Assembly (NCBI RefSeq): GCF_055900595.2
Contig: NZ_CM148325.1
Direction: 5' to 3' (one strand)
DNA length: 64,000 bases
Position numbers and translations under genes: made by a program. Position 1 is the first letter of the stretch, and the number at the start of each line of letters is the position of its first letter. Shown here piece after piece: positions 63,196 through 63,946 of the stretch. A model generated the notes under the pieces. It saw only the letters and a list, made by a program, of their open reading frames with translations. It did no database searches and was not told the DNA's origin.

Positions 63196-63912
63196 ATGCG
63201 TCCAGCAGGCCGTAGCAATAATCAGGTGCGTCCCGTTACCCTGACTCGTAACTATACAAAACATGCAGAAGGCTCGGTGCTGGTCGAATTTGGCGATACC
63301 AAAGTGTTGTGTACCGCCTCTATTGAAGAAGGCGTGCCGCGCTTCCTGAAAGGTCAGGGCCAGGGCTGGATCACCGCAGAATACGGTATGCTGCCGCGTT
63401 CTACTCATACCCGTAATGCCCGTGAAGCGGCGAAGGGTAAGCAGGGCGGCCGCACGATGGAAATCCAGCGTCTGATCGCTCGTGCATTGCGCGCCGCAGT
63501 AGATTTGAAAGCCCTCGGTGAGTTTACTATTACGCTGGACTGCGACGTACTTCAGGCTGATGGCGGCACCCGCACTGCTTCTATCACCGGTGCTTGTGTT
63601 GCACTAGCCGATGCCCTGAATAAACTGGTTGAAAATGGCAAGCTGAAAACCAACCCGATGAAAGGGATGGTAGCCGCGGTTTCTGTCGGGATTGTGAACG
63701 GCGAAGCGGTTTGCGATCTGGAATACGTTGAAGACTCTGCCGCTGAAACGGACATGAACGTGGTGATGACCGAAGACGGGCGCATCATTGAAGTGCAGGG
63801 AACGGCGGAAGGCGAGCCGTTTACCCATGAAGAGCTACTCACCTTGTTGGCGCTGGCCCGAGGGGGAATCGAATCCATTGTAGCGACGCAGAAGGCGGCG
63901 CTGGCAAACTGA
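63196..63912 (+). CDS. rph: Ribonuclease PH, full length 238 aa
   Basis: [39 protein letters not shown]...; reading frame is intact to the native C-terminus. Confidence 0.9.
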
Positions 63913-63917
63913 TTTTT

Positions 63918-63946
63918 AAGGCGACTGATGAGTCGCCTTTTTTTTG
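63918..63946 (+). terminator. rph terminator and pyrE attenuator hairpin
   Basis: AAGGCGACT-GATG-AGTCGCCTT followed by TTTTTTTT, just upstream of the pyrE start. Confidence 0.6.

Follow-up and report, generated by a model that had tools for sequence, protein, structure and literature searches.

The rph-pyrE junction at the right end of the DNA analysed here (a stretch of 64,000 nucleotides from contig NZ_CM148325.1 of RefSeq assembly GCF_055900595.2, hereafter the window) is almost certainly an ordinary wild-type Escherichia coli junction in a strain whose lineage is deep-branching and has diverged by ~4% from K-12; nothing in the sequence speaks against this. Intact rph is the ordinary and already known wild-type state of this textbook operon, in which transcription of pyrE starts at the rph promoters and passes through an attenuator (PMC2784333, PMC9997739, PMC5933015).

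The gene occupies 63196-63912 on the + strand, where the frame runs without interruption through 238 codons to a native TGA stop at 63910-63912 (+ strand), 5 nt upstream of the base of the attenuator hairpin. The start is the ATG at 63196, and the TTG at 63172 that appears in a mechanically made list of open reading frames is merely an in-frame upstream extension. Exactly the same limits are annotated for WP_001247087.1 in a RefSeq genome with identical DNA (100% over 63100-64000), and the same RNase PH is annotated in four independent genomes, several mainstream E. coli among them. Translation of this ORF yields the native C-terminus that was quoted in the first-pass annotation of this DNA, and the interval given there, 63196-63946, is likewise accurate, its last position being the G that follows the T run of the attenuator.

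The product of rph matches the NCBIfam equivalog TIGR01966 (RNasePH) with 380.9 bits (E=1.8e-114, for a curated cut-off of 141.5 bits), residues 2-236 falling on profile positions 1-235 of 236, which places it in the RNase PH family. Residues 2-237 also align with the RNase PH of Pseudomonas aeruginosa, whose structure is solved (1R6L), and this alignment includes the C-terminal segment that is lost in the rph-1 allele of K-12, since residues 208-237 align to the C-terminus of 1R6L. Residues 121-132, which include the conserved DGGTR stretch, are all identical between the two proteins in this alignment; we take this stretch to have a phosphate-binding role in the RNase PH/PNPase fold. A structure search returned no solved structure with the window protein's own sequence, the P. 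aeruginosa enzyme being the best match. RNase PH is a phosphorolytic 3'-5' exoribonuclease that trims tRNA precursors. Judged by its sequence, the rph product is a complete 238-residue RNase PH, and RNase PH activity would be normal in this strain. For curators, the practical consequence is that rph should be called here as a complete gene, not as a pseudogene.

The first reading of this DNA had described rph as intact, unlike the rph-1 frameshift allele of K-12 MG1655, and had suggested an alignment with the genes of MG1655 and W3110 as a check. This alignment was run and bears the description out: it contains a single 1-nt indel, with the lesion on the K-12 side and no frameshift in the window. 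The sole length difference lies in a G run at 63862-63866 (+ strand, codons G223-G224), which has five G in the window against four in both K-12 strains (GAGGGGGAATCG and GAGGGGAATCG, respectively), and the G missing in K-12 is the rph-1 deletion. Past the run of four, the K-12 frame reads R222-G223-E-S-N-P-L-stop and ends at a TAG which is the premature stop of rph-1 strains and lies out of frame in the window (63881-63883, + strand). In a BLASTP comparison of the two products, identity does not extend past residue 223 of the K-12 protein, which has 228 aa, and the K-12 genes are annotated as 'truncated RNase PH' of 687 nt in MG1655 (NC_000913.3) and as 'frameshifted' in W3110 (NC_007779.1). 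In the window, no G is missing at codons 223-224 and the TAG is not in frame, so that translation would proceed to the native stop.

Homopolymer runs are the classic site of indel errors in long-read sequencing, and the fifth G might on that account be an assembly miscall in a gene that is really frameshifted. This is extremely improbable because eight independent complete assemblies are 100% identical to the window over 63100-64000, and because the run of five is widespread. It was counted in complete E. coli genomes with 32-mers built in such a way that each 28-base seed spans the G run: the five-G probe was found exactly in 5185 of the 5426 genomes, while the four-G probe matched 169, of which 168 exactly. 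Among the matches listed, carriers of the run of four are nearly all K-12 laboratory derivatives (MG1655, W3110, BW25113, J53, HMS174 and similar strains, with genomes of ~4.6 Mb). The shorter run is confined to such K-12-type genomes, which is not the background of the window, whereas five G are found in all the non-K-12 Escherichia compared. A homopolymer error at 63862-63866 was rejected on the strength of the independent assemblies and this census. The ~72 remaining genomes, matched by neither probe, presumably have SNPs inside the 32-mer. At least 95.6% of complete E. coli genomes carry wild-type rph, and its presence here would therefore come as no surprise to a specialist.

Immediately downstream of rph lies the pyrE attenuator, as the first-pass annotation had also stated. 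The hairpin (AAGGCGACT, loop GATG, AGTCGCCTT; 63918-63939, + strand) has nine pairs, a 4-nt loop and a centroid structure of -14.7 kcal/mol, and it is followed by a run of eight T (63938-63945, + strand) of which the first two are also paired in the stem. The Shine-Dalgarno sequence of pyrE, GAGGAG, is found at 63965-63970 and its ATG at 63978-63980, so that only 23 nt of pyrE (63978-64000, + strand; MKPYQRQ...) are inside the window before it is cut at the window end; this start agrees with the annotation of the DNA-identical genome. The arrangement is that of an attenuator, with a G+C-rich hairpin followed by a U run in the transcript, a translated frame (rph) that ends beside the hairpin, and pyrE directly downstream on the same strand. 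From 63867 to 64000 each base is identical to MG1655 and W3110, and the hairpin is the same in MG1655, W3110, E. albertii, E69 and E1V33. The T run has nine T instead of eight in one relative, R32_14_1F. Beyond E. coli, little has changed from the last ~50 nt of rph through the stop, hairpin and T run to the pyrE spacer: this part is nearly invariant in the E. albertii type strain and two other Escherichia species representatives, whose rph is otherwise 5-9% different and which all have five G.

It is this identity to the experimentally studied K-12 attenuator, together with the invariance across Escherichia species, that gives the hairpin its significance, rather than the statistics of the scans. 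A generic terminator scan was not informative for the hairpin, finding one site for 1.2 expected by chance from shuffled sequences, and neither was the fold z-score of the region, which is short and reached just -1.0; Rfam has no family for the rph-pyrE attenuator. Upstream of rph, the yicC-rph intergenic region (63070-63195, + strand) contains the rph-pyrE promoter region and the rph 5' leader, as identified by its identity with MG1655. A consensus promoter scan of 62900-64000 returned no site, so the promoter positions are taken solely from the identity with K-12.

A model of UTP-sensitive, translation-coupled attenuation for pyrE was reportedly established by Bonekamp et al. in 1984 and by Jensen in 1993. 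Read-through into pyrE requires a ribosome translating rph close behind RNA polymerase, which keeps the hairpin unformed, and such close following occurs when low UTP slows the polymerase (PMC2784333). In the strain studied here the rph frame is intact, and translation therefore would extend to the native TGA, ribosomes reaching 63910-63912 just 5 nt upstream of the hairpin. When UTP is scarce, the polymerase would be slow and the trailing ribosome would cover the left arm of the hairpin, so that termination would be prevented and transcription would enter pyrE. When UTP is plentiful, the polymerase would outrun the ribosome, allowing the hairpin to form and transcription to stop at the T run. 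In rph-1 strains, by contrast, the premature stop is 34 nt upstream of the hairpin and therefore leaves its left arm uncovered, resulting in high termination and low pyrE. Termination in such strains is constitutively high and pyrE is under-expressed, leaving MG1655 partly starved for pyrimidines (PMC2784333, PMC9997739, PMC5933015). As far as can be read from the DNA, the window holds all the sequence requirements for normal coupling, and attenuation in this strain is expected to be normal. The earlier claim of normal rph-pyrE coupling can thus be retained as a sound deduction from the identity of 63867-64000 to K-12 and from the 5 nt between the stop and the hairpin, and pyrE expression here should be free of the pyrimidine limitation that MG1655 and W3110 typically show.

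That rph is intact is no proof of an origin outside K-12, because some K-12 lines are rph+. The K-12 strain WG1 is without rph-1 (PMC9997739), laboratory work has also produced true rph-1 reversions (PMC5933015), and if the window came from such a line, natural or reverted, the state of its rph would be uninformative on its origin. The probability of this is practically nil, given how far the window has diverged from MG1655. The window and MG1655 agree at 95.97% of 35,211 aligned positions, with 55 substitutions inside rph itself, and the window further departs from MG1655 by the absence of dinD and by three insertions of 3-17 kb. The K-12 derivatives EC600, DH1 and TOP10 are themselves only about 95.8-95.9% identical to the window over an 8-kb segment of housekeeping genes (xanP-gltS-recG-trmH-spoT, 50000-58000), where near-identity would be expected of a K-12 background. 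A K-12 origin with a repaired rph was therefore rejected, being refuted by the divergence from MG1655. The first reading of the strain as something other than laboratory K-12 was right, although the ~4% divergence is what decides the matter and is a far stronger sign than intact rph, which by itself would be weak evidence.

Only 16 of 5425 complete genomes reach 99% identity or more over the same 8-kb segment. In a sample of the others, which comprised K-12 derivatives, C41(DE3), O157:H7, O121:H19 and avian pathogenic O2:K1, identity is about 95.4-96.4% whatever the type of strain. Since every mainstream E. coli sampled is, like MG1655, ~96% identical to the window, the strain is to be placed in a deep-branching lineage. 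We suspect that this lineage, labelled E. coli in RefSeq, is possibly Escherichia cryptic clade I.

Divergence is unevenly distributed along rph. The central segment at 63381-63700 (+ strand) has 46 mismatches to MG1655 in 320 positions (85.9% identity, or 14% divergence from the common E. coli allele), which makes it the third-highest peak of divergence in a window with a mean of 11.7 differences per 300 nt (sd 8.6). These differences are almost purely synonymous: 51 of the 56 nucleotide differences between the window and K-12 rph are at third codon positions, and the only amino-acid replacements up to residue 223 are V138A, Q142N and I216T. Over 63100-64000, at least 99% identity is seen in 11 of 5424 genomes, 95-99% in 57 and 90-95% in 5356. 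The segment is also mosaic among strains, since window-type and K-12-type patches alternate within 63381-63700 in 2013C-4282 and 95-3322, a pattern that indicates homologous recombination between two old haplotypes. A donor was sought among species-representative genomes: scanning them for an exact 30-mer gave no match, and a codon-degenerate pattern picked out four Escherichia representatives, of which the best (L009) is only 95.3% identical over the segment, so that no donor was identified. At the other extreme, the longest run without mismatches to MG1655 in the window, set against a background divergence of about 4%, is the 487 nt at 62894-63380, which takes in the 5' end of yicC, the promoter region between the divergent yicC and rph, and rph up to its nucleotide 185; this identity might reflect either strong constraint or a recent exchange by recombination.

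A diverged and imported centre, with its V138A, Q142N and I216T replacements, might be thought to alter RNase PH function or polymerase pausing upstream of the attenuator, in which case coupling would not be normal. The height of the divergence peak lends this some weight, and so does the established model, in which the UTP-sensitive speed of the polymerase depends on the sequence transcribed, as would presumably hold for 63381-63700. It is nevertheless very unlikely, because nearly all the changes are synonymous, A138 and N142 recur in E. albertii and in three further Escherichia species representatives, several mainstream E. coli genomes have this very protein in their annotation, and the last 130 nt, where the coupling decision is made, are identical to K-12. 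Normal coupling remains the preferred reading. There is about an even chance that the central 320 nt were introgressed from an unsampled Escherichia lineage and are mosaic in a small minority of E. coli, while the attenuator and the ~100 nt with which rph ends are frozen across species even at synonymous positions, which would suggest that selection acts at the nucleotide level for attenuation (pausing and coupling) and not for the protein alone. Should this be true, the population genetics of a well-understood operon would gain a small footnote. The mosaic structure of rph is a minor curiosity of population genetics and has no effect on the finding that the gene is intact.

Other features in and beside the window deserve mention. 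The gene for the DNA damage-inducible protein D, dinD, which in MG1655 and W3110 lies within a ~1.16-kb segment between yicC and yicG, is absent between yicG and yicC in the window (62009-62205). It is also absent in Z0117EC0005, 2013C-4282, 95-3322 and R32_14_1F, and this is therefore a common presence/absence polymorphism. The longest of the three insertions relative to MG1655 (15866-33082, 17.2 kb) separates nepI from yicS, near selC. The annotations of related genomes place in it eilA (a HilA-family regulator), the inverse autotransporter adhesin IatC, and type III secretion translocon and needle-tip proteins of the YopB/SseC and IpaD/SipD families. Its best full-length match among complete genomes is only 95.6% identical, and it is covered to at least 80% in only 30 complete genomes. 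The tRNA-Sec gene selC (37267-37357, - strand), a classic integration site for genomic islands, is the sole Rfam match at gathering score in the window, and Z0117EC0005, which is 100% identical at rph, is yet not collinear with the window around it. A second insertion (41384-48637, 7.3 kb) is found between yicI and yicH; in Z0117EC0005 this interval encodes a BglG-family antiterminator, fructose-type PTS components IIA/IIB/IIC, two aldolases, a ROK-family protein and a D-lyxose/D-mannose isomerase. The third (1434-4832, 3.4 kb) adjoins ilvN and is annotated only with two hypothetical proteins in eight genomes that match it at 99% or more; it is fully covered in just 444 of 5426 complete genomes. 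Finally, in the closest relatives, Z0117EC0005 and R32_14_1F, a gene annotated as 'reverse transcriptase family protein' is present between pyrE and slmA (L002 7817-8776, L007 3319-3902), a site that is just beyond the right end of the window and at which MG1655 has a short intergenic gap. It could encode a retron or another defence-associated reverse transcriptase.

Among known systems, the window is closest to the wild-type E. coli rph-pyrE operon, with which it shares the order yicC, rph, attenuator and pyrE, an RNase PH of 238 aa, a stop 5 nt from a 9-bp hairpin, a run of eight T and a run of five G; it differs from it in the central third of rph, where it has a rare haplotype with three conservative replacements. 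In its locus, promoter region, first 185 nt of rph and attenuator it agrees with the rph-1 allele of K-12 MG1655, W3110 and EMG2, but that allele, unlike the window, has an inactive product of 228 aa, a translation stop that falls 34 nt short of the hairpin, and low expression of pyrE (PMC9997739, PMC2784333). The RNase PH enzymes of P. aeruginosa (1R6L) and Bacillus subtilis (1OYP) are full-length homologues of the window product, being orthologues that belong to other genera.
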